Source: Acidobacteriota bacterium (GTDB lineage: Bacteria; Acidobacteriota; UBA6911; RPQK01; CBDFMZ01). From it: DNA of 64,000 nt. Positions 49,804 to 64,000 of this stretch are shown one piece after another. The notes under the pieces are model-generated. The model was not told the DNA's origin. It did no database searches and saw only the letters and a program-made list of their open reading frames with translations. The position numbers were made by a program, and so were the translations under genes. Location of the stretch: the NCBI GenBank assembly GCA_965249865.1, contig CBDFMZ010000002.1:1483304-1547303 (forward strand), given 5' to 3'. The stretch's first letter is position 1. Each line of letters starts with the position of its first letter.

Positions 49804-51249
49804 ATGAATTGTCAAGATCATCTCTATCGAAGTCGTGATCCTCGGTTGGTAAACCGGCGCTGGTTCCTGGAACAATGCCGTGTCGGACTTGGCGCCCTGG
49901 CACTCGGCCAACTCCTGAGCGATGCCGGTTACGCCAAGCCGGCAATTCCGTCGCAAAGCAATCCGTTCACACCAAGAACCCCGCACTACACCGCGAAGGC
50001 CAAGAACATCATCTTCCTCTTCATGGCTGGCGCTCCCAGCCATCTTGAACTGTTCGATTTCAAACCTCAACTAGCCAAGTTTGACGGAACCTTACCACCC
50101 GAAGATTTGATCAAGGACTACCGCACCGCCTTCATCAACCCGAGTTCAACGTTGCTCGGACCCAAGTTTAAGTTTTCTAAGCATGGGGAGTGTGGTACGG
50201 AGCTTTCCGAGTTGCTTCCCCATTTGGCTAATGTCGTCGACGATATTACGATCGTAAAATCGATGGTAACCGACGCCTTCAATCACGCACCTGGTCAGCT
50301 TTTGATGAATACGGGAACACAGCAGTTCGGCCGGCCCAGCATAGGGGCTTGGGTCACCTACGGTCTGGGCAGCCAATCCCAGGACTTGCCCGCCTTCGTG
50401 GTGTGCAGCTCCGGGAAGTCGGGCCCAAGCTGTGGAGAGTCCTGCTGGGGTAGTGGCTTCTTGCCAACTGTCTACCAGGGCGTTCCATTCCGCAGCAGCG
50501 GCGATCCTGTCCTCTATCTATCGAGCCCTCATGGCATGGACCAGGAGCTGCAGCGAGACTCCCTGGACTCAATTCGGCGACTGAACCAGATGCGCCTGAA
50601 CGTAACGGGTGATCCCGAAATTAACACGCGCATCAATTCCTTCGAAATGGCATTCCGGATGCAGACCAGCGTGCCGGAGTTAATGGATATCTCTCAGGAA
50701 CCGCAGCACATCCTGGACATGTACGGCGCCGAGACGGGCAAAGCTTCCTTCGCCAACAACTGCCTGCTGGCTAGGCGCCTGGTCGAGCGTGGCGTCCGCC
50801 TGGTCCAACTCTACCACGAGGCTTGGGATCAACATTCCTATCTAGTCAGAGATATCAAGAAGAACTGTGAAGACACCGATCGAGCTTCAGCTGCCCTAGT
50901 TCAAGATCTCAAACAGCGGGGTATGCTCGACGACGTGCTTGTCATCTGGGGTGGGGAGTTCGGGCGCACTCCAATGGTGCAAACGGGTAACGAGGACGGG
51001 CGCGACCATCACCCCAATGCCTTTTCCATGTGGTTGGCCGGGGGCGGCATCAAGCCGGGTACCACGCTGGGAGAAACGGATGAATTCGGGTTCAACGTGG
51101 TGAGCGATCCGGTTCATGTGCACGATCTGCATGCGACCATCCTGCATCTGCTAGGCTTCGATCACACCCGGCTGACCTACCGCTTCCAAGGACGCGACTT
51201 CCGCCTCACCGATGTCCACGGTGAGATCGTTTCCAAGCTCATTGCTTAG
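49804..51249 (+). CDS. DUF1501 (sulfatase-like fold) protein with a Tat-type signal
   Basis: An RRWFLEQ twin-arginine motif near the N-terminus. The ~480-aa length and its position directly after the DUF1553 gene match the conserved DUF1501 partner. Confidence 0.7.
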
Positions 51250-51283
51250 TACTCCAAGCAGATGGGGCTTGTGAGGCGAGGTC

Positions 51284-51302
51284 AAGGCGGGACGGAGCAC
51301 TC
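51284..51302. terminator. Hairpin between convergent genes (bidirectional terminator candidate)
   Basis: GGAGCAC-tcact-GTGCTCC is a 7-bp perfect stem followed by an AT-rich tract (ATAAATACA). Confidence 0.4.
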
Positions 51303-51339
51303 ACTGTGCTCCATAAATACACCTTACTCGGGGTCAGCA

Positions 51340-53838
51340 TCACTGGGAAGCTTGCAGCGTTTCCAGGGGTGATTCGTCGTAGACGCCACGGCTGTTCACT
51401 GCGCCGATCGCAAGGGTCAGTGCAGTCACGATGAAAAAGGTGATGACGACCGGAGTGGGAGATGGGACAAACACCGCGTCGAAAACGAAATAGGCCAGGC
51501 ACTCGGTAGCGGCCAACGCAATAATTCCCCCGGTCGCCGCGGCAAAAGCGCCCAGCAAAAGATACTCCACCATCAGAATCTTCAGGATTTGAGCGCGCGA
51601 GGCCCCCAGAGTTCTTAAAAGGACGCTCTCCTGCAGTCGCTGATATCGACCCGTGGCAAGCGTTGCGGTCAATACCATGAGTCCCGTGATAACACTGAAC
51701 GAAGCCATGAACCGGATGACAAAGGAAACCTTGTCGAGAACCGCGTCCATGGTGTCCAGGATCAGAGCCAGGTCAATCGAAGATACACTCGGAAACCTTT
51801 GCATGATCGCTCTCTGCAGTTTCGCGAAGAGCGGACGGGAAGGAACGCGGGCCGCCAGAACGTGAAATTGAGGTGCATTCTCGAGCACACCTTCCGGGAA
51901 GAGGATGAAGAAATTGGTCCGTAGTTGATCCCAATCCACACGGCGGATGCTGGCGACTATTGCCATCATCGGCACGCCCTGAACATCAAACTCGAGGGTG
52001 TCGCCGACAGCAACCTTCAGGTTCTCAGCGATTCCTTCCTCAAGCGAGACAGGGACCACCGGTGGGTCGCTATTGACCTTTCCCTGCCAGCTCCCTTCCA
52101 CGATCTCTTCGGTATCGCTAAGACGATTGCGATAGGTGCATCGATATTCCCTCAGCAGGGCCCATTCGGAAGTGGGTGATTCACGCCGCAACTGTTCTAC
52201 ACTTTTTCCCTCGATCGAGCTCAACCTCATGGTCACAATCGGGACATCGTGCAGTACCGGCACGTTGAGGGAACGCAGCAGCTCAGAGACTTGAGATTTC
52301 TGGTCCGATTGAATGTCAAACAAGAGCAGATTTGGCTGATTTCGGCTCGAGCGAGACACCTTGTCCAGCAAGACGTGGTGCGTCAGGTAGAGGGTTAAGA
52401 TCAAAAATGTACCCAGCCCGAGCGAGAGCATCAGCAGAGTGGTCTGATTTAGGGGCCGGTAAAGATTAGCCAGACCTTGCCGCCAGACGTAAGGCCATGA
52501 AGACGGGAACCATCTCCTGACCAAGACCATAATCAGCTTTGCAACGCCGCCGAGCAGACCAAAAATGAGCACCAACGAGACAAAGAATGCTGTACCACGG
52601 CCCCAGTGCCCCGTCTGCGTGATCGCAAAACTGAAAATGGCTCCTCCCAAGAGAAAATAAATCAACCACCGAAGCGGGTCTTTTCGTTGTGAAACACCCT
52701 GTTCATAGTCGGACCGAAGAGCAAGCAGCGGAGACATCTTCCGGATAGGCAAAAGAGGGAGCAGGGCAATGAGTAGGACGATTCCAAAACCGAGCAGCAG
52801 GCCCTCCGCAAGCGCCTTTCCAGAAACGATGAAGGGAACCTCCAAGGGTAGAAAATCGCCCAGGACGAGAGGAAGGAATGCCTGGACTCCCAGGCCTAAG
52901 AACGACCCCAAAATCGATCCCAGCAGCCCCAGAGCAGCCGCTTGGATCAAATAGACCAACACCGTTTTTCCTGAGCTTACCCCCAGACAACGGAGCATGG
53001 CCACGGTGGCGGTCTTCTGCTTGATGTACAAATGAATGGAACTGGCCACACCGATCCCACCCAGCAGCAGGGCAGCGAAAGCAACCAGTTTCAGAAAACT
53101 TCCGAAGTGACCGATCGTGCTTCCCAGTCTTGCTTTACGTTTCTCGACAGTGTCAGCTGCCAGTCTGGACCGGATGAGATCCGGTTCGATCTCTCGAACA
53201 AGTGTTTCGACATCAGCACCTTCCCCCATCTTAAAATAGACCGTATACCTGGCCCGGCTCCCAAACTGTATAAGTCCGGTCTGGTCCAGATACTCCAACG
53301 GGATAAAAACCGTCGGACCGATCAGGGAACGCACGGCCGCCTCACCGGGCGTGCTCTTGAGCCGACCAGCAATGTTAAAAATGAACGAACCCAACTGGAT
53401 TGGATCCCCCACTCCGGCACCAAACTGCAGCATCAGAGCGTCATCCGCCAGGGCGCTGGGTCCTGATTTAATGTGGTGAGCAGCGGCGGCTGGTTCAGTC
53501 TCCAGCGTGCCGTAATAGGGAAAGCCACCTTCTATCGCTCTCACCCTCACCAGCCTGCTCTTTCCACTTTCGGGGAAATGGGCCATCGACAGGAAACTGA
53601 CCTGCCGGGAACGCTCTCCCTGGATGGCGTTGATCAGCTTTTGGGCCTGGTGGGTGAAAGGCTGATTCCCGAAAATGGCCAGATCAGCCCCCAGCAATGA
53701 CCTCGCCTGCCGGTCAATAGCCCTCTCAAGGCCCTTACTGAAGGAACTGATCGCGACCAGCGCGGAAACACCAACGACAATCGAGGACATAACCCAGAGC
53801 ATCCGTTTCCGGCTGGAACGGCTGTCACGCCAGGCCAT
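51340..53838 (-). CDS. FtsX-family ABC transporter permease (two FtsX domains; YbbP/MacB-like)
   Basis: A membrane protein of more than 800 aa with two 4-TM FtsX-like modules and large periplasmic loops. It lies downstream of the ABC ATPase in the same orientation. Confidence 0.7.
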   Translation of the reverse strand: MAWRDSRSSRKRMLWVMSSIVVGVSALVAISSFSKGLERAIDRQARSLLGADLAIFGNQPFTHQAQKLINAIQGERSRQVSFLSMAHFPESGKSRLVRVRAIEGGFPYYGTLETEPAAAAHHIKSGPSALADDALMLQFGAGVGDPIQLGSFIFNIAGRLKSTPGEAAVRSLIGPTVFIPLEYLDQTGLIQFGSRARYTVYFKMGEGADVETLVREIEPDLIRSRLAADTVEKRKARLGSTIGHFGSFLKLVAFAALLLGGIGVASSIHLYIKQKTATVAMLRCLGVSSGKTVLVYLIQAAALGLLGSILGSFLGLGVQAFLPLVLGDFLPLEVPFIVSGKALAEGLLLGFGIVLLIALLPLLPIRKMSPLLALRSDYEQGVSQRKDPLRWLIYFLLGGAIFSFAITQTGHWGRGTAFFVSLVLIFGLLGGVAKLIMVLVRRWFPSSWPYVWRQGLANLYRPLNQTTLLMLSLGLGTFLILTLYLTHHVLLDKVSRSSRNQPNLLLFDIQSDQKSQVSELLRSLNVPVLHDVPIVTMRLSSIEGKSVEQLRRESPTSEWALLREYRCTYRNRLSDTEEIVEGSWQGKVNSDPPVVPVSLEEGIAENLKVAVGDTLEFDVQGVPMMAIVASIRRVDWDQLRTNFFILFPEGVLENAPQFHVLAARVPSRPLFAKLQRAIMQRFPSVSSIDLALILDTMDAVLDKVSFVIRFMASFSVITGLMVLTATLATGRYQRLQESVLLRTLGASRAQILKILMVEYLLLGAFAAATGGIIALAATECLAYFVFDAVFVPSPTPVVITFFIVTALTLAIGAVNSRGVYDESPLETLQASQ

Positions 53839-59538: not shown

Positions 59539-60218
59539 TGACTGACACGCGCCTGCAAGCGGAACCAGCCGCCGGGCTGGTTTCCCTTGTAACTGACCAA
59601 CTTCCAGCACGACAAAACTTCGAGGTGACCCGAGTGAAGAACTTCGAACTTCTAGCTAGGGGCTTGATTTGTTGACTCCGGCCAGCCAGTCTGCGAAGTC
59701 ACCCTGTCGCCACGTGTACTGAGGCTGGTAGCCCAACAGCCGGGTGGCCTTTTGGTTCGACCAGAGGGAGGCGTAACCCTGCAGGGGCCTCTTTAGAGGT
59801 ACATGTGAGTAGTATCGAGAGAGGAGTTCAGGGGTCTCCACCCTGGAAGACGTGTCATAGCCACCGAACACGAAGACCTCATACTTAAGGTCCTCATTTT
59901 CCACCGCCAGCCGGACGGCTTGCGCCGTATCCCTTGCATCCGTAAAACCCCACAATATGTTGCGCGGTGCCGGTGGACCCGGTACGGGCCACTCCTCTTC
60001 AGGAGCATCTTCTACGGTCTTGAGGTATCTCCTGGTCCAAATGTCTTCGACCGTAAGTCCCTTAGCCCAGCTTGACTGAGTGGCTACTTCGGCCTCGTTC
60101 CTCTTGATGTACCAACTGTTGTTGATACGCAAGCAGAGGGTTCGTATCCCGTAAGCGTCCGAGTATCTCTTGCAGGTGATTTCAGCCAACAGTTTGCTCA
60201 ATCCGTATTCGTCGTGTG

Positions 60219-60231
60219 GCCGGCAAGGATG
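60219..60231. repeat. 13-bp direct repeat GCCGGCAAGGATG (left copy) flanking the IS remnant
   Basis: The sequence is identical to 60754-60766. It encodes the duplicated HPCR peptide of the split epimerase. Confidence 0.75.
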
Positions 60232-60753
60232 AATTCTCCGCACGATTGTTCAGCCAGCGGCCGGCTTGTTGCAGACCGAATCCGCCCAGTTCGCGCAACG
60301 CCGCTCGGTAAGACCTCAGCCGATCAGTGATGATCGCATCCGGCCTGCCGTAGCGCTTCATTAGTTTCCTGAGGAATTTCAAAGCGGCTTCGCGGTCTCT
60401 CTTCTTCGAGACAAAGGCCTCAAGCACCTCGCCTTCCTGGTCGACGGCTCGCCAAAGGTAATGACCTTCGCCGTTGATCTTCACGAACATCTCATCGAGG
60501 TGCCACCGCAACCCGAAAACGCGCGCATTCGATCCATCCGCTTCTTGCGGATCTCGGCGGCTAAATCGGGCCGAACCGGTTCCACCAGAACCGGACTCGT
60601 GGCTCACCTCGATCCCACGCTCGTGAAGAAGGTCCTCGACATCACTGCCAGGCGGATGATCTCGGGCGAGGTCTTGAAATAGCGAAAGGGGTTCTTCATC
60701 CGAAGACACTACAAGGCGCATCTCGCCGACTCAAGCCAGTTTCCTCTGACAAT
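60232..60753 (-). mobile_element. Degraded IS6-family (IS26-like) insertion sequence remnant
   Basis: The minus strand encodes WHLDEMFVKINGEGHYLWRAVDQEGEVLEAFVSKKRDREAALKFLRKLMKRYGRPDAIITDRLRSYRAAL...RWLNNRAENS, matching the IS6 DDE transposase core (W-H-x-D-E...YLWRAVD...ITD). The N-terminal HTH part is spread over three frames (EVSHES / VRFWWNRFGP / DLAAEIRKKR). The C-terminal ~60 aa and a clear right IR are missing. Confidence 0.65.
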
Positions 60754-60766
60754 GCCGGCAAGGATG
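60754..60766. repeat. 13-bp direct repeat GCCGGCAAGGATG (right copy)
   Basis: Identical to 60219-60231. Confidence 0.75.
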
Positions 60767-61222
60767 TTCTTCGTCGATAGGGAGGTAGTCCGGAACGATC
60801 TCATGCTTTTGAAAGCAGAACCCCGTCGCCGCACAGGAAGAAGCAAAGACCACCTTCCCTACACCTGCCCGAAGGGCTCCCTCCAGAACGTGTACGGTTC
60901 CCACTACGTTGACTTCGATCATTCGCTCGGGCCGGGGGCCCGCCCGGGCCCCGGTACAGCGGCCAGGTGGATCACGGCGTTGGTACCGTGACACGCTTGG
61001 GCGAGCTTCTCCGAATCCATTATGTCGCCCCGAATGGACTCGGCTCCTTTCACCTTCGGTCCACTGCGGCTATAGTCCGCTACAGTATGACCGGCTTGGA
61101 GCAACTCACGGAGCACATAGCTCCCGAGAAGACCACTGCCGCCCGTGACGAGGATTTTCATGAGATCTCCCTTTCAAGGTGAACCTTCTTCTCTCCTGAC
61201 CGCCCGCAAGTCAAAGCCTGGT

Positions 61223-62357
61223 TCATCCCTTCAACACCTCTCGAAGGGTTGCCTCGATGCCCTCCAGAGCGTCGTCGATATCTTTTTCCGTATGGACCCA
61301 GGAAAAACCATGTTGCCAGCCGCTCATTAAATAGACACCGTGTTGGAGGGCCGTGCGATAGAAGCGAAGCTGAAGTTCCCAGTCGATTCTTGCCGTATCC
61401 CCCCACTCCCGCAAGAGGTCTCCGGTGCTAAAATACATGCCGAAGCGGTTGCCGACAGCCTGGATGTGCCCTGCGCCGTAACGCTGGAATAATTCACCCA
61501 GCCCGTCATAGAGGCGCTTTTCCAATCGTTTCTGGTGCTCCCACACGGCCTGTGTTGCGGCAATTTCTAAAAACACCTCGGCCGCGTGCATCACCAAAAC
61601 CTGACCATAGTAGGTTCCCTGGTTGATGACCTCACTCACCGGAGCGAGGCAATAGACCTTCGAGATAGCCGGTGAAATTGATCGGCTCCATGATGACAGC
61701 GGCAGTCCTGTCTCCCTCTCGCTTCAGTAGATCCTCCAAAAAGTTCCAGGTCCTTCCACGGGAGTATGGACACATAGTTACCTACCTCCGGGATGGTGCC
61801 GGCGCTCTCCCCCCCGAACAGTGGACGAAGCTCGCGGTCCTGTCTCGTCGAGTCGAGTGAAGCAGTTGAACTGCAGTACATCGTTGTGTCCGTGGTAGTG
61901 CCCTTCAAACTTGACGACCTTGAGTTTCCCCGTAAACGCCCGAGCTACCCTTACAGCCAGTGCCGTGGCCTCCGTACCCGTGAACATGAGTCGCACGAGC
62001 TCGGCACAGGGGAGCATCTCCACAAGCCGTTGCGCCACGCGGCTGGGGAACACGGTCTCCTTGCCCGCACATAATTCCCCTCTCGATCCCCTTGTGAAGG
62101 GCCGCCTTGATAGCCGGATGACTGTGTCCAACGAGCGCGGCACCATGCCCACAATTGAGGTCGACATATCTTCTGCCGTCCAAGTCAAACAGGTAGGCCC
62201 CACTGCCACGAGAGACAAAGAACGGACGACCGTCCAGCTCCTCGCGCCGGCGGCCCGGTGTGGTCATGCCTGCCACAAGGTAGCGAGATGCAAACTCAAA
62301 GGCCTCATCGCTGCAAAGCTCTCTCTCGGCGTACGTATCAGACTCTGCTCTGGACAT
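61223..62357 (-). pseudogene. Class-III (GSA-aminotransferase/HemL-like) aminotransferase broken by at least four frameshifts
   Basis: The ordered pieces are FVSRGSGAYLFDLDGRRYVDLNCGHGAALVGHSHPAIKAAL, ELVRLMFTGTEATALAVRVARAFTGKLKVVKFEGHYHGHNDVL, IPEVGNYVSILP (other frame), and the C-terminus RFGMYFS...GVYLMSGWQHGFSWVHTEKDIDDALEGIEATL. Different frames are used, and there are gaps between the pieces. Confidence 0.55.
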
Positions 62358-62595
62358 CCCCTAAATCTCTTCTGTGATCCAATCTTTCATCGCTCTGCAA
62401 AGATGAGTGCATTGATGAACCCGAGCACACAAGGAATTCAGTTCATCATAGAACAGCCGTTCTCGTGCAGGTAAGCATACTCGACAATTTGTTGAAATTC
62501 ATCCCCGCAGCATCTAGAATGGTGTTTCTTCACGGAGGTGAAGTGCGGTGGTGTGCACACCTCTTGGCTGCACATTTTTCCAGGAACGATCCTAA

Positions 62596-63066
62596 ATGAC
62601 ACACGAAGTACAGATGGCCACAAGACTGACCATCATTGTAGTTATGACGTTTACCATCACTCTGGGGCTCCAGAGACATGTCGCCACTCAGGAAGCATCT
62701 AACCAGGAAAAGAAAACGGAGCGGATCGCTATTTCGGAGTTGAAGAAAAAGCTCGACAGCGGCGAAGAGTTCCTGTTGATCGATGTCCGTGAAGACTGGG
62801 AACTAGAAAAAGACGGCGCCATCCCCGGCGTCATCCACATCCCAGTGGCCGAGCTCGATCAACGAATGAAGGACATCCCCAAAGACATTGAGCTCGTCTT
62901 TTACTGAAGGGGTGGAGGGCGTGCGGCGCGCGCTGCCGAGAAATTCATCCAAGCGGGTTACAAAGCGGGGGGGTTTTGTAGCCTTAGCGATTGGAAGAAA
63001 GCAGGACAGGAAATCGTTGAAAAGGTGGACCGGCCAACAGAAGGATCAATCCAGCCGAAACACTAA
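62596..63066 (+). CDS. Periplasmic single-domain rhodanese (sulfurtransferase) with in-frame TGA at the active-site Cys position: candidate selenoprotein, or alternatively a nonsense pseudogene
   Basis: Signal peptide/TM, then the rhodanese fold (LIDVREDWE...GVIHIPVAEL...IELVFY-TGA-RGGGRAARAAEKFIQAGYKAGGF...W). The TGA at 62905-62907 sits exactly where CxxGxR rhodaneses have the catalytic Cys. The frame continues cleanly to TAA at 63064-63066. Confidence 0.55.
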
Positions 63067-63371
63067 GTGTCTCGTTTTATCGATACGATGACATTTGTGG
63101 CACTCGCCACAATTATGAAACCAAGTACTAAACGTATCAGTGTCACTTCGAATTCAAAAGTATCCCTGCTAGTTCGGACGGAGTCCGGGTCGAGGCACCC
63201 GGTTTTGAAACCTATCAGTCTCTTCAATCCATCAGCTACTCCATCATAGATTCATCATCTAATTAGAAAGTAGCAGATTGGCACTGTAAATCGTGGGCCA
63301 ACCTTCCCGAAGCTACATGACTATGAAAATTGACCACCGAAGGACAATATCTATCGATGAGTGGGAAGCCA

Positions 63372-63980
63372 TTAAAACTGAGTTCGACTCAAGATGGATT
63401 CGGCGTATCGGAGCTCTCCCGTCAACCCATCGTAGTATTGGAAGACCACCTGAGGATGGGGAAAAGCCACCCATCGCTCCCGGCCGAGCTCTACAGGATT
63501 ATTGAAGACATTGTTGACCTGAACGACGCAATAGAAGGGGTGAAACCTGAGAGAAGCGGAAGTCATATCGTTGAGCAAGTAGCTCGACCAGCGGATCTCG
63601 CACTGGCGGCCCTGAGAGTCGAAAACACCATTGGCCGGTCGATTCCCCTCGTCACTGGCCATATGGTTGGCTGAGTTGTGCGGTCCTGAGGCGAACTCCC
63701 AGACCCGGTCGGTGATCTTAATCACAAAACTGTTGTGCAAATCTCCCGTGAGAACGAAAACAGGTTTTCCTAAAGAGTCCCAGAACTGAATAAGTTGTTC
63801 GCGCTCTTCAAGAAACACAGTCCAGGCATCGTCCTTGTTGACTGGGGCGACTTTCCAACTGCCCCCCGCCGTGTGGGGAACCATAAGGTTGACCGAGGAG
63901 ACGACGAAGAGGAACTCAGAGTCACTCTCAACCATCGCTTTCATCAACCAGTCCTTCTGTCGTGTCCCCAGCATCGACAA
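63372..63980 (-). CDS. PhoD-like/metallophosphoesterase family protein (C-terminal part)
   Basis: VFVLTGDLHNSFV is the GDxHN metallophosphatase motif. The ORF starts 20 bp from the window edge, so the N-terminus may be incomplete or misassigned. Confidence 0.35.
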   Translation of the reverse strand: MSMLGTRQKDWLMKAMVESDSEFLFVVSSVNLMVPHTAGGSWKVAPVNKDDAWTVFLEEREQLIQFWDSLGKPVFVLTGDLHNSFVIKITDRVWEFASGPHNSANHMASDEGNRPANGVFDSQGRQCEIRWSSYLLNDMTSASLRFHPFYCVVQVNNVFNNPVELGRERWVAFPHPQVVFQYYDGLTGELRYAESILSRTQF

Positions 63981-64000
63981 GCCCGGCTGGTCGGGATGCT

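Follow-up and report, generated by a model that had tools for sequence, protein, structure and literature searches.

Evidence for a recent, truncated IS6-family insertion in an extended-SDR epimerase gene

Insertion sequences of the IS6 family (IS26, IS257, IS6100) transpose by a cointegrate mechanism, with cleavage at both IS ends during cointegrate formation, and an 8-bp target duplication is the rule of the family (PMC7986276). The cointegrates may form by copy-in or by the targeted conservative pathway. We analyzed a 64-kb window (the whole stretch of DNA under study, 64,000 nucleotides) in which an epimerase gene is split by DNA related to this family. The copy in the window resembles the family in its DDE transposase (PF13610 and NF033587), and its flanking repeat is compatible with an 8-bp core. 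Its intact relatives are 812 bp long with a single open reading frame (family approximately 700–890 bp) and carry 17-bp near-perfect terminal repeats beginning with GG; many of the relatives' copies have no flanking repeats, as expected from replicative or intramolecular transposition (PMC7986276). Unlike these elements, the window copy retains 70% of the element with only the left end, but is bracketed by the inferred target duplication; its source is a variant that has lost 34 bp, so that the first ~31 transposase residues are replaced; and the hosts are uncultured soil-type genomes, the closest intact copies being in Acidobacteriota MAGs. By size and reading frame it is a fragment of a family member and not a complete member, and of the two terminal inverted repeats the left one (IRL) is intact and the right one (IRR) is absent.

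The 522 bp between the two copies of the direct repeat matched, on the minus strand, the Pfam family DDE_Tnp_IS240 (PF13610; E-value 5.8e-32, 111 bits against a cut-off of 27), and the frame-corrected fragment scored 135 bits (cut-off 125) with the NCBIfam model NF033587, 'IS6 family transposase'. The similarity to an IS26-like DDE transposase core on the minus strand, proposed in a preliminary description of this DNA, was thus upheld above both cut-offs. A protein search showed that the fragment transposase is 91% identical to full-length 233-aa proteins, and the catalytic D motifs WHLDE and IITD as well as the glutamate of NNRAEN are all retained. The following features were delineated:

60232–60753, minus strand: DNA solely of IS6-family origin, from alignment to the intact copies L001, L021 and L128, PF13610 and NF033587
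60232–60699, minus strand: broken transposase frame, with its ATG at 60699 and ending ...LNNRAENS, the last ~75 codons being gone
60740–60756, minus strand: intact IRL, GGCATTGTCAGAGGAAA, the first three bases of which (60754–60756) are shared with the upper 13-bp repeat

The transposase reading is scattered over three frames (MKNPFRYFKTSPEIIRLAVM / DVEDLLHERGIEVSHE / RFWWNRFGP / AAEIRKKRMDRMRAFS / WHLDEMFVKING...LNNRAENS) and stops after LNNRAENS, as had been described. The broken frame has deletions of 34 bp (approximately 60642/60643; IS nt 115–148), 4 bp (60595/60596), 1 bp (60564/60565) and 1 bp (60509/60510).

To define the ends of the fragment, we used intact copies of the same element. 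One such copy, of 812 bp, lies at positions 2944–3755 of L001 and has the IRL GGCATTGTCAGAGGAAA and the IRR GGCACTGTCAGAGGAAA; a repeat scan gave six more from other genomes, in which the flanks differ immediately outside GGC...GCC. At least three of these six are from Acidobacteriota MAGs. The fragment is 99.4% identical to the intact copies on aligned bases (3 substitutions in 527 bp), and its IRL is identical to that of the seven independent intact copies. The alignment starts at window position 60756, not at 60753, and at the other end the IS sequence continues to ...GCGGAGAATTCA, which is IS nt 567, the last CA being window positions 60231–60230. The IS-homologous stretch, including overlapping bases, is therefore 60230–60756 (527 bp) and corresponds to nt 1–567 of the 812-bp element less 40 bp of internal deletions, or ~70% of the element. 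IS bases 568–812 are missing, and the IRR with them.

These boundaries do not support the vestigial inverted repeats that had been suggested at both ends: ATTGTCAG, at the 60753 end, falls within the genuine and intact IRL, and ATTGTTCAG (60246–60254) represents the internal CTGAACAAT codons (LNN), located 14 bp inside the fragment end and at the same place in every intact copy. A cryptic right end at ATTGTTCAG was also considered and rejected, as cleavage would then fall at IS nt 555 rather than 567 and the flanks would not be repeated. Lacking its right end and with its transposase frame broken, the fragment is predicted to be immobile, so that this half of the previous 'old, immobile remnant' stands. 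No second copy of the element was found within the 64-kb window; Rfam and tRNA scans of the window gave no matches, and a promoter and terminator scan of it gave nothing relevant.

Several other sequences related to this IS group were noted in passing. Short elements of 162–282 bp with IS6-type inverted repeats and no transposase are present in L073 (4757–4972 and 6687–6902), L013 (4324–4605), L027 (6197–6421) and L068 (1932–2093), and the two 216-bp L073 elements are mutually 90% identical. Their structure suggests IS6-derived MITEs, only two of which are listed in the 2021 review of the family. At about 1900–1940 of L093, a related copy starts at IS nt 553 (CGTGCGGAGAATTC...) beside an IS6-end-like sequence (...CTTGACAGTAC). 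The breakpoints of the window copy (567), of P0033 (about 556) and of L093 (553) lie within 15 bp of each other; the causes differ between the window copy and P0033.

The preliminary description had pointed to a perfect 13-bp direct repeat around the insertion and regarded it as an atypical target duplication. Both copies were confirmed, and the repeat is unique in the window: GCCGGCAAGGATG occurs twice in the 64 kb, and no third copy is present there even with one mismatch permitted. In shuffled controls the mean number of matches was 0.12, and two or more matches were obtained in 0 of 100 shuffles. A larger duplication of which the repeat would be a part was ruled out. The repeat and its parts are:

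60219–60231, plus strand: lower 13-bp direct repeat, GCCGGCAAGGATG, reading CA + TCCTTGCC + GGC on the minus strand
60754–60766, plus strand: upper 13-bp direct repeat, GCCGGCAAGGATG
60757–60764, minus strand: upper copy of the inferred 8-bp target-site duplication, TCCTTGCC, obtained by splitting the 13-mer once the IS end is fixed
60222–60229, minus strand: lower copy of the inferred 8-bp target-site duplication, abutting the internal IS breakpoint, …GAGAATTCA|TCCTTGCC

Since the intact copies place the true IS end at 60756, the 13-mer resolves into CA + TCCTTGCC + GGC, where GGC is IS nt 1–3, CA matches the last retained IS bases (nt 566–567), and the central 8 bp are the only ones not attributable to the IS. 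The atypical length hence disappears, and the repeat is compatible with a canonical 8-bp IS6 duplication plus five coincidentally matching bases. The length of 8 bp is borrowed from the family rule; for the present IS group itself, none of 31 inverted-repeat pairs (loci L001–L124) had a perfect 8-bp flanking duplication, the best flank match being 6/8. The lack of perfect flanking duplications in these pairs fits frequent intramolecular transposition or recombination between copies. The L108 and L117 copies have one flank in common and differ in the other. A plain 8-bp duplication needs five extra chance matches (3 + 2), with P about 0.005, which hints at a role of microhomology in at least one of the junctions.

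The gene interrupted by the insertion encodes a protein of the extended-SDR type and is present in the window in two parts:

60767–61161, minus strand: epimerase 5' part, with the Rossmann fold and TGGSGLLG, and a 1-bp deletion in a GC run at approximately 60937–60942
59656–60218, minus strand: epimerase 3' part, which together with the lower 13-mer starts HPCRPHDEYGLSK and is identical to the intact allele

Excision of 60232–60766 gives ...LPIDEEHPCRPHDEYGLSKLLAE... with the catalytic motif YGLSK, and the rejoined product of 323 aa matches PF01370 (E-value 4.7e-34), in agreement with the earlier proposal that removing this segment restores the YxxxK region of the epimerase. After excision and frameshift correction, the product thus has TGGSGLLG, YGLSK and the PF01370 match, the characters of an extended SDR. 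No NCBIfam equivalog was found at its cut-off, the best being HpnA with 79 bits against 368; judged by its sequence, the product is an extended-SDR epimerase/dehydratase, for which 'epimerase' is a family label only and a specific enzyme (GalE, RmlB or HpnA) is not assignable. The epimerase carries a second lesion that is independent of the IS, consisting of a 1-bp deletion and one substitution in the GC-only run 60937–60942 (GGGC-GGGCCCCCGG in the window vs GGGCGGGGCGCCCGG in the related genome L127), and the deletion shifts the frame. A sequencing error is a possible source of this frameshift, the run being homopolymer-rich.

When related genomes were examined, three of them (L127, L002 and L003) were found to have a single 13-mer region and an uninterrupted epimerase, which answers the question, raised previously, of whether relatives have an intact gene at this locus. 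The best homologue of the epimerase, P0152 (88% identity), is found in L002/L003, where the order of genes is that of the window: an intact aminotransferase (445 aa), an intact epimerase (318 aa), Ldh_2 and AP_endonuc_2. The single-copy site in these genomes reads GAAGAACACCCTTGCCGGCCACACG, with a flank identity of 88–93%. L127, which was found by means of the AP_endonuc_2 protein of the window, is far closer. It has the empty site and an intact epimerase of 323 aa, and is 99.94% identical to window positions 60231–47361 (8 mismatches and no gap in 12.9 kb) and 99.4% identical to 64000–60754. Except at the frameshift run, the repaired window epimerase equals the intact 323-aa L127 product. The empty site in a near-identical genome, together with a split gene showing no amino-acid change, points to an inactivation of the epimerase that is recent and polymorphic.

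The upstream partner of the epimerase was compared with the intact 445-aa gene of L003:

61223–62357, minus strand: class-III aminotransferase pseudogene

It contains a ~206-bp deletion at about 61652–61675 and several 1-bp indels. The aminotransferase is broken in the window and in L127, in both by the ~206-bp deletion and frameshifts, and intact in L002–L004, in which the aminotransferase–epimerase pair is kept even where other neighbours differ. Since the gene is broken also in L127, where the site is empty, its decay predates the IS insertion, and the epimerase was probably no longer needed once its partner was lost. The locus is in this respect like other IS-disrupted pseudogenes in decaying operons, in that the partner was dead first and the IS and the frameshift in the epimerase followed; the flanking Ldh_2 and AP_endonuc_2 genes are intact, and nothing notable differs.

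The differences between the window and L127 are unevenly distributed. Near the insertion, all of them lie in 60887–62283 (L127 6604–7993) and comprise 11 substitutions and 4 indel events, with no differences in 60231–53828 (6.4 kb) or in 62284–64000. Comparison of this 1.4-kb tract with an outgroup showed derived states in both the window and the L127 lineages. The three private deletions of the fragment (60509–60596) are on the same side as the tract, and the half of the fragment beside the internal breakpoint is pristine. Possible origins of the tract are recombination with a diverged strain, assembly noise where strains were mixed, or error-prone DNA synthesis that accompanied the insertion. 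A second cluster, of 6 substitutions against L127 in 356 bp (window 51171–51526), suggests another imported patch.

An artefact of long-read assembly or polishing of mixed strains, which would have produced both the truncated copy and the small indels, has to be weighed here. The contig names of the relatives carry coverage tags (11x, 2x) that suggest long-read metagenome assemblies, indels are unusually frequent relative to substitutions from 60509 to 62062, and the epimerase frameshift is in a GC homopolymer-rich run. On the other hand, open reading frames of up to 1064 aa are intact elsewhere in the window, there is no gap in the 12.9 kb aligned with L127, a 13-bp repeat is far below any assembly k-mer, and the junctions match a real IS end to the base. 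An artefact could account for the 1-bp indels and not for the insertion itself, and we consider it very improbable as an explanation of the locus.

The apparent age of the fragment was assessed from copies in the same genome. According to a cluster look-up, the window epimerase pieces (80, 63 and 177 aa) are on a contig of 1,831,969 bp, where two genes for full-length IS6 transposases are also found, namely P0121 and P0025 (both known here as protein sequences alone). The search for other copies in the genome that had been recommended thus yielded full-length genes, although both are of the 34-bp-deleted variant. The 34-bp N-terminal deletion is common to the fragment, P0121 and P0025, and P0121 in addition has two of the fragment's three substitutions, so that the fragment's private changes come down to three small deletions (4, 1 and 1 bp) and the missing nt 568–812. 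In the deleted variant, the native first ~31 residues are exchanged for an alternative-frame N-terminus (MRLVVSSDEEPLSLFQDLARDHPPGSD...), which is found in at least three places in the genome. The variant is probably defective and yet has multiplied, as far as can be judged from these copies. The junction of the 34-bp deletion gave 0 hits in the JGI metagenomes, a collection that does not hold the ENA source assembly.

These findings bear on the view that an old IS6 insertion with an atypical 13-bp duplication decayed in place and kept vestigial inverted repeats at both ends. The perfect 13-bp repeat, the broken frame and the missing C-terminus would all be expected from such a history. However, the IS boundary is 3 bases inside the repeat, what was taken for an inverted repeat at the truncated end belongs to the internal coding sequence of all intact copies, a 99.94%-identical genome is empty at the site while the split gene has no amino-acid change, and most of the 'decay' came down from a defective variant that the same genome carries. 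With 3 substitutions in 527 bp, and with the 34-bp deletion and two of the substitutions shared with copies on the same contig, the word 'old' has to be withdrawn, and we regard this history as extremely improbable.

How the truncated copy arose can be approached from the position of its breakpoint. In the account that we prefer, and to which we give an even chance, the left 567 nt of the 812-bp element that inactivate the extended-SDR gene are the product of a normal insertion followed by a deletion that was initiated by a transposase nick and guided by homeology. The element would have entered by the normal IS6 route, the transposase joining its 3' ends to target DNA cut 8 bp apart on the two strands and the cointegrate then being resolved, giving a full copy flanked by TCCTTGCC. 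The predicted full-length state, with the IS in parentheses, would read ...AACA TCCTTGCC (GGCATTG...GAGAATTCA CACCTGCCG...CAGTGCC) TCCTTGCC GGCCACACG..., and a full-length IS at the site would show the junction CTCTGACAGTGCC|TCCTTGCCGGCCACAC. Soon after, a single deletion would have removed IS bases 568–812, including the IRR, with its right edge at the IS/target junction: a nick at the joint between IRR and target would break a replication fork or expose an end, which would rejoin within the IS where its sequence (CACCTGCCGTTCCGGCGACGA) comes closest to that of the target (TCCTTGCCGGCCACACGACGA). The insertion would have been tolerated, the upstream aminotransferase being already a pseudogene.

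Excising exactly CACCTGCCG...CAGTGCC from the predicted full-length state yields the present sequence. The end-points of this deletion cannot be shifted by one base, the right one coincides with the final IS base, and both copies of the duplication are intact; a random deletion would reach the last IS base about once per several hundred cases. Because the edge of the deletion is the site of the transposase's normal 3'-end nick, we propose that the deletion was initiated by a nick. The sequences beyond the two breakpoints are alike (12/20 and 14/24 identical, including TGCCG and CGACGA), and the real register ranks first among about 790 IS registers (tied among 3 for 12/20 and among 2 for 14/24), although the rank depends on the length compared and varies from 1 to 5 for lengths of 9–50. 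The presence of parent-type, 34-bp-deleted copies on the same 1.83-Mb contig is a further point in support. No full-length IS allele was found at the site, the left junction giving 0 hits in the JGI metagenomes (without the ENA source assembly), and none of the other truncated copies examined retained a duplication.

Candidates for a parallel or for a simpler mechanism were rejected. The GTDB copies truncated at nt 48, 189, 409 and 447 have no retained duplication. P0033 stops at NNRA through an IS256-family insertion at that place, P0005 is a copy interrupted by a group II intron, and P0041, from a contig of 2x coverage, has a +1 error and lacks any deletion. Classical slipped-strand deletion was dismissed as the sole mechanism, as the crossover has mismatches on both sides, and an IS26-type adjacent deletion made by a second copy was dismissed since no copy is adjacent or elsewhere in the window. 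The proposed event shares with IS26-type adjacent deletions that one end-point is exactly at the IS end, a hallmark of a transposase-made break. It differs in that adjacent deletions remove DNA outside a whole IS, whereas here the right part of the element itself is lost and the target copy is untouched.

It is also possible, though doubtful, that the locus was made in one step by an aberrant transposition, in which the IRL was joined to the target, the copy-in was left uncompleted, and synthesis stopped or switched at nt 567 and returned by means of the CA microhomology and the homeology. This would install the left 567 nt only, with a short target duplication made in the same event. A single rare event would then explain why the fragment starts exactly at the IRL end and has no IRR, why the internal junction has a 2-bp overlap and why its register ranks first in homeology; it would fit a very recent insertion, as deduced from the empty site in L127 and the unchanged amino acids; and the overlaps at both junctions, improbable under a plain 8-bp duplication (P about 0.005), would speak in its favour. 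Against it, both IS ends are cleaved when IS6 cointegrates are formed (PMC7986276). The GGC overlap at the IRL junction remains a 1/64 coincidence in this scheme, the exact and unambiguous 8-bp duplication is a coincidence as well unless two-ended strand transfer had set the stagger, and a second example was absent among the truncated copies examined. To our knowledge, there is no report of one-ended or aborted transposition in the IS6 family. The more specific sequence of left-end copy-in, aborted replication across the element and a template switch to the target guided by homeology or microhomology is unlikely in our estimate. If true, it would account for the overlapping bases at each junction, perhaps also for the small indels clustered on one side, and it would constitute a one-ended transposition product of a kind not described for the family.

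The same overlaps could arise with no transposase at all, if a fork that had stalled or broken in the epimerase gene switched template by way of microhomology into an IS copy at another place in the genome and back, or if an IS fragment was captured at a break. Such a templated insertion would leave the junction microhomologies GGC and CA and the 13-bp duplication, and it agrees with the overlaps at both junctions, with the homeology beside the internal junction and with the clustering of small indels on one side of the junction. However, chance alone (about 4/812) would have to place the start of the copied segment no more than 3 bases from the IS terminus, and its unambiguous duplication would happen to equal the 8 bp of the family. 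A transposase-independent template switch is therefore less likely than one-step aberrant transposition, and improbable in its own right.

Taken together, the feature is real and correctly located, and it is of an ordinary kind: an IS6-family insertion, truncated and recent, in a gene that was probably dispensable. It provides a worked correction on two points, since the atypical 13-bp duplication vanishes once the IS end is read from intact copies, and the seemingly ancient decay is in large part the legacy of a defective variant that the same genome carries. It also documents polymorphism at the level of strains, with a gene newly inactivated in an operon whose decay had already begun. If the preferred account of a normal insertion followed by a nick-initiated deletion is right, the locus would be one clean case of an IS6 copy that lost its right-hand end with the break falling precisely between IS and target, a small mechanistic curiosity. 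Should such events be recurrent, they would represent a self-inflicted, transposase-initiated route by which IS6 elements are turned into immobile remnants.
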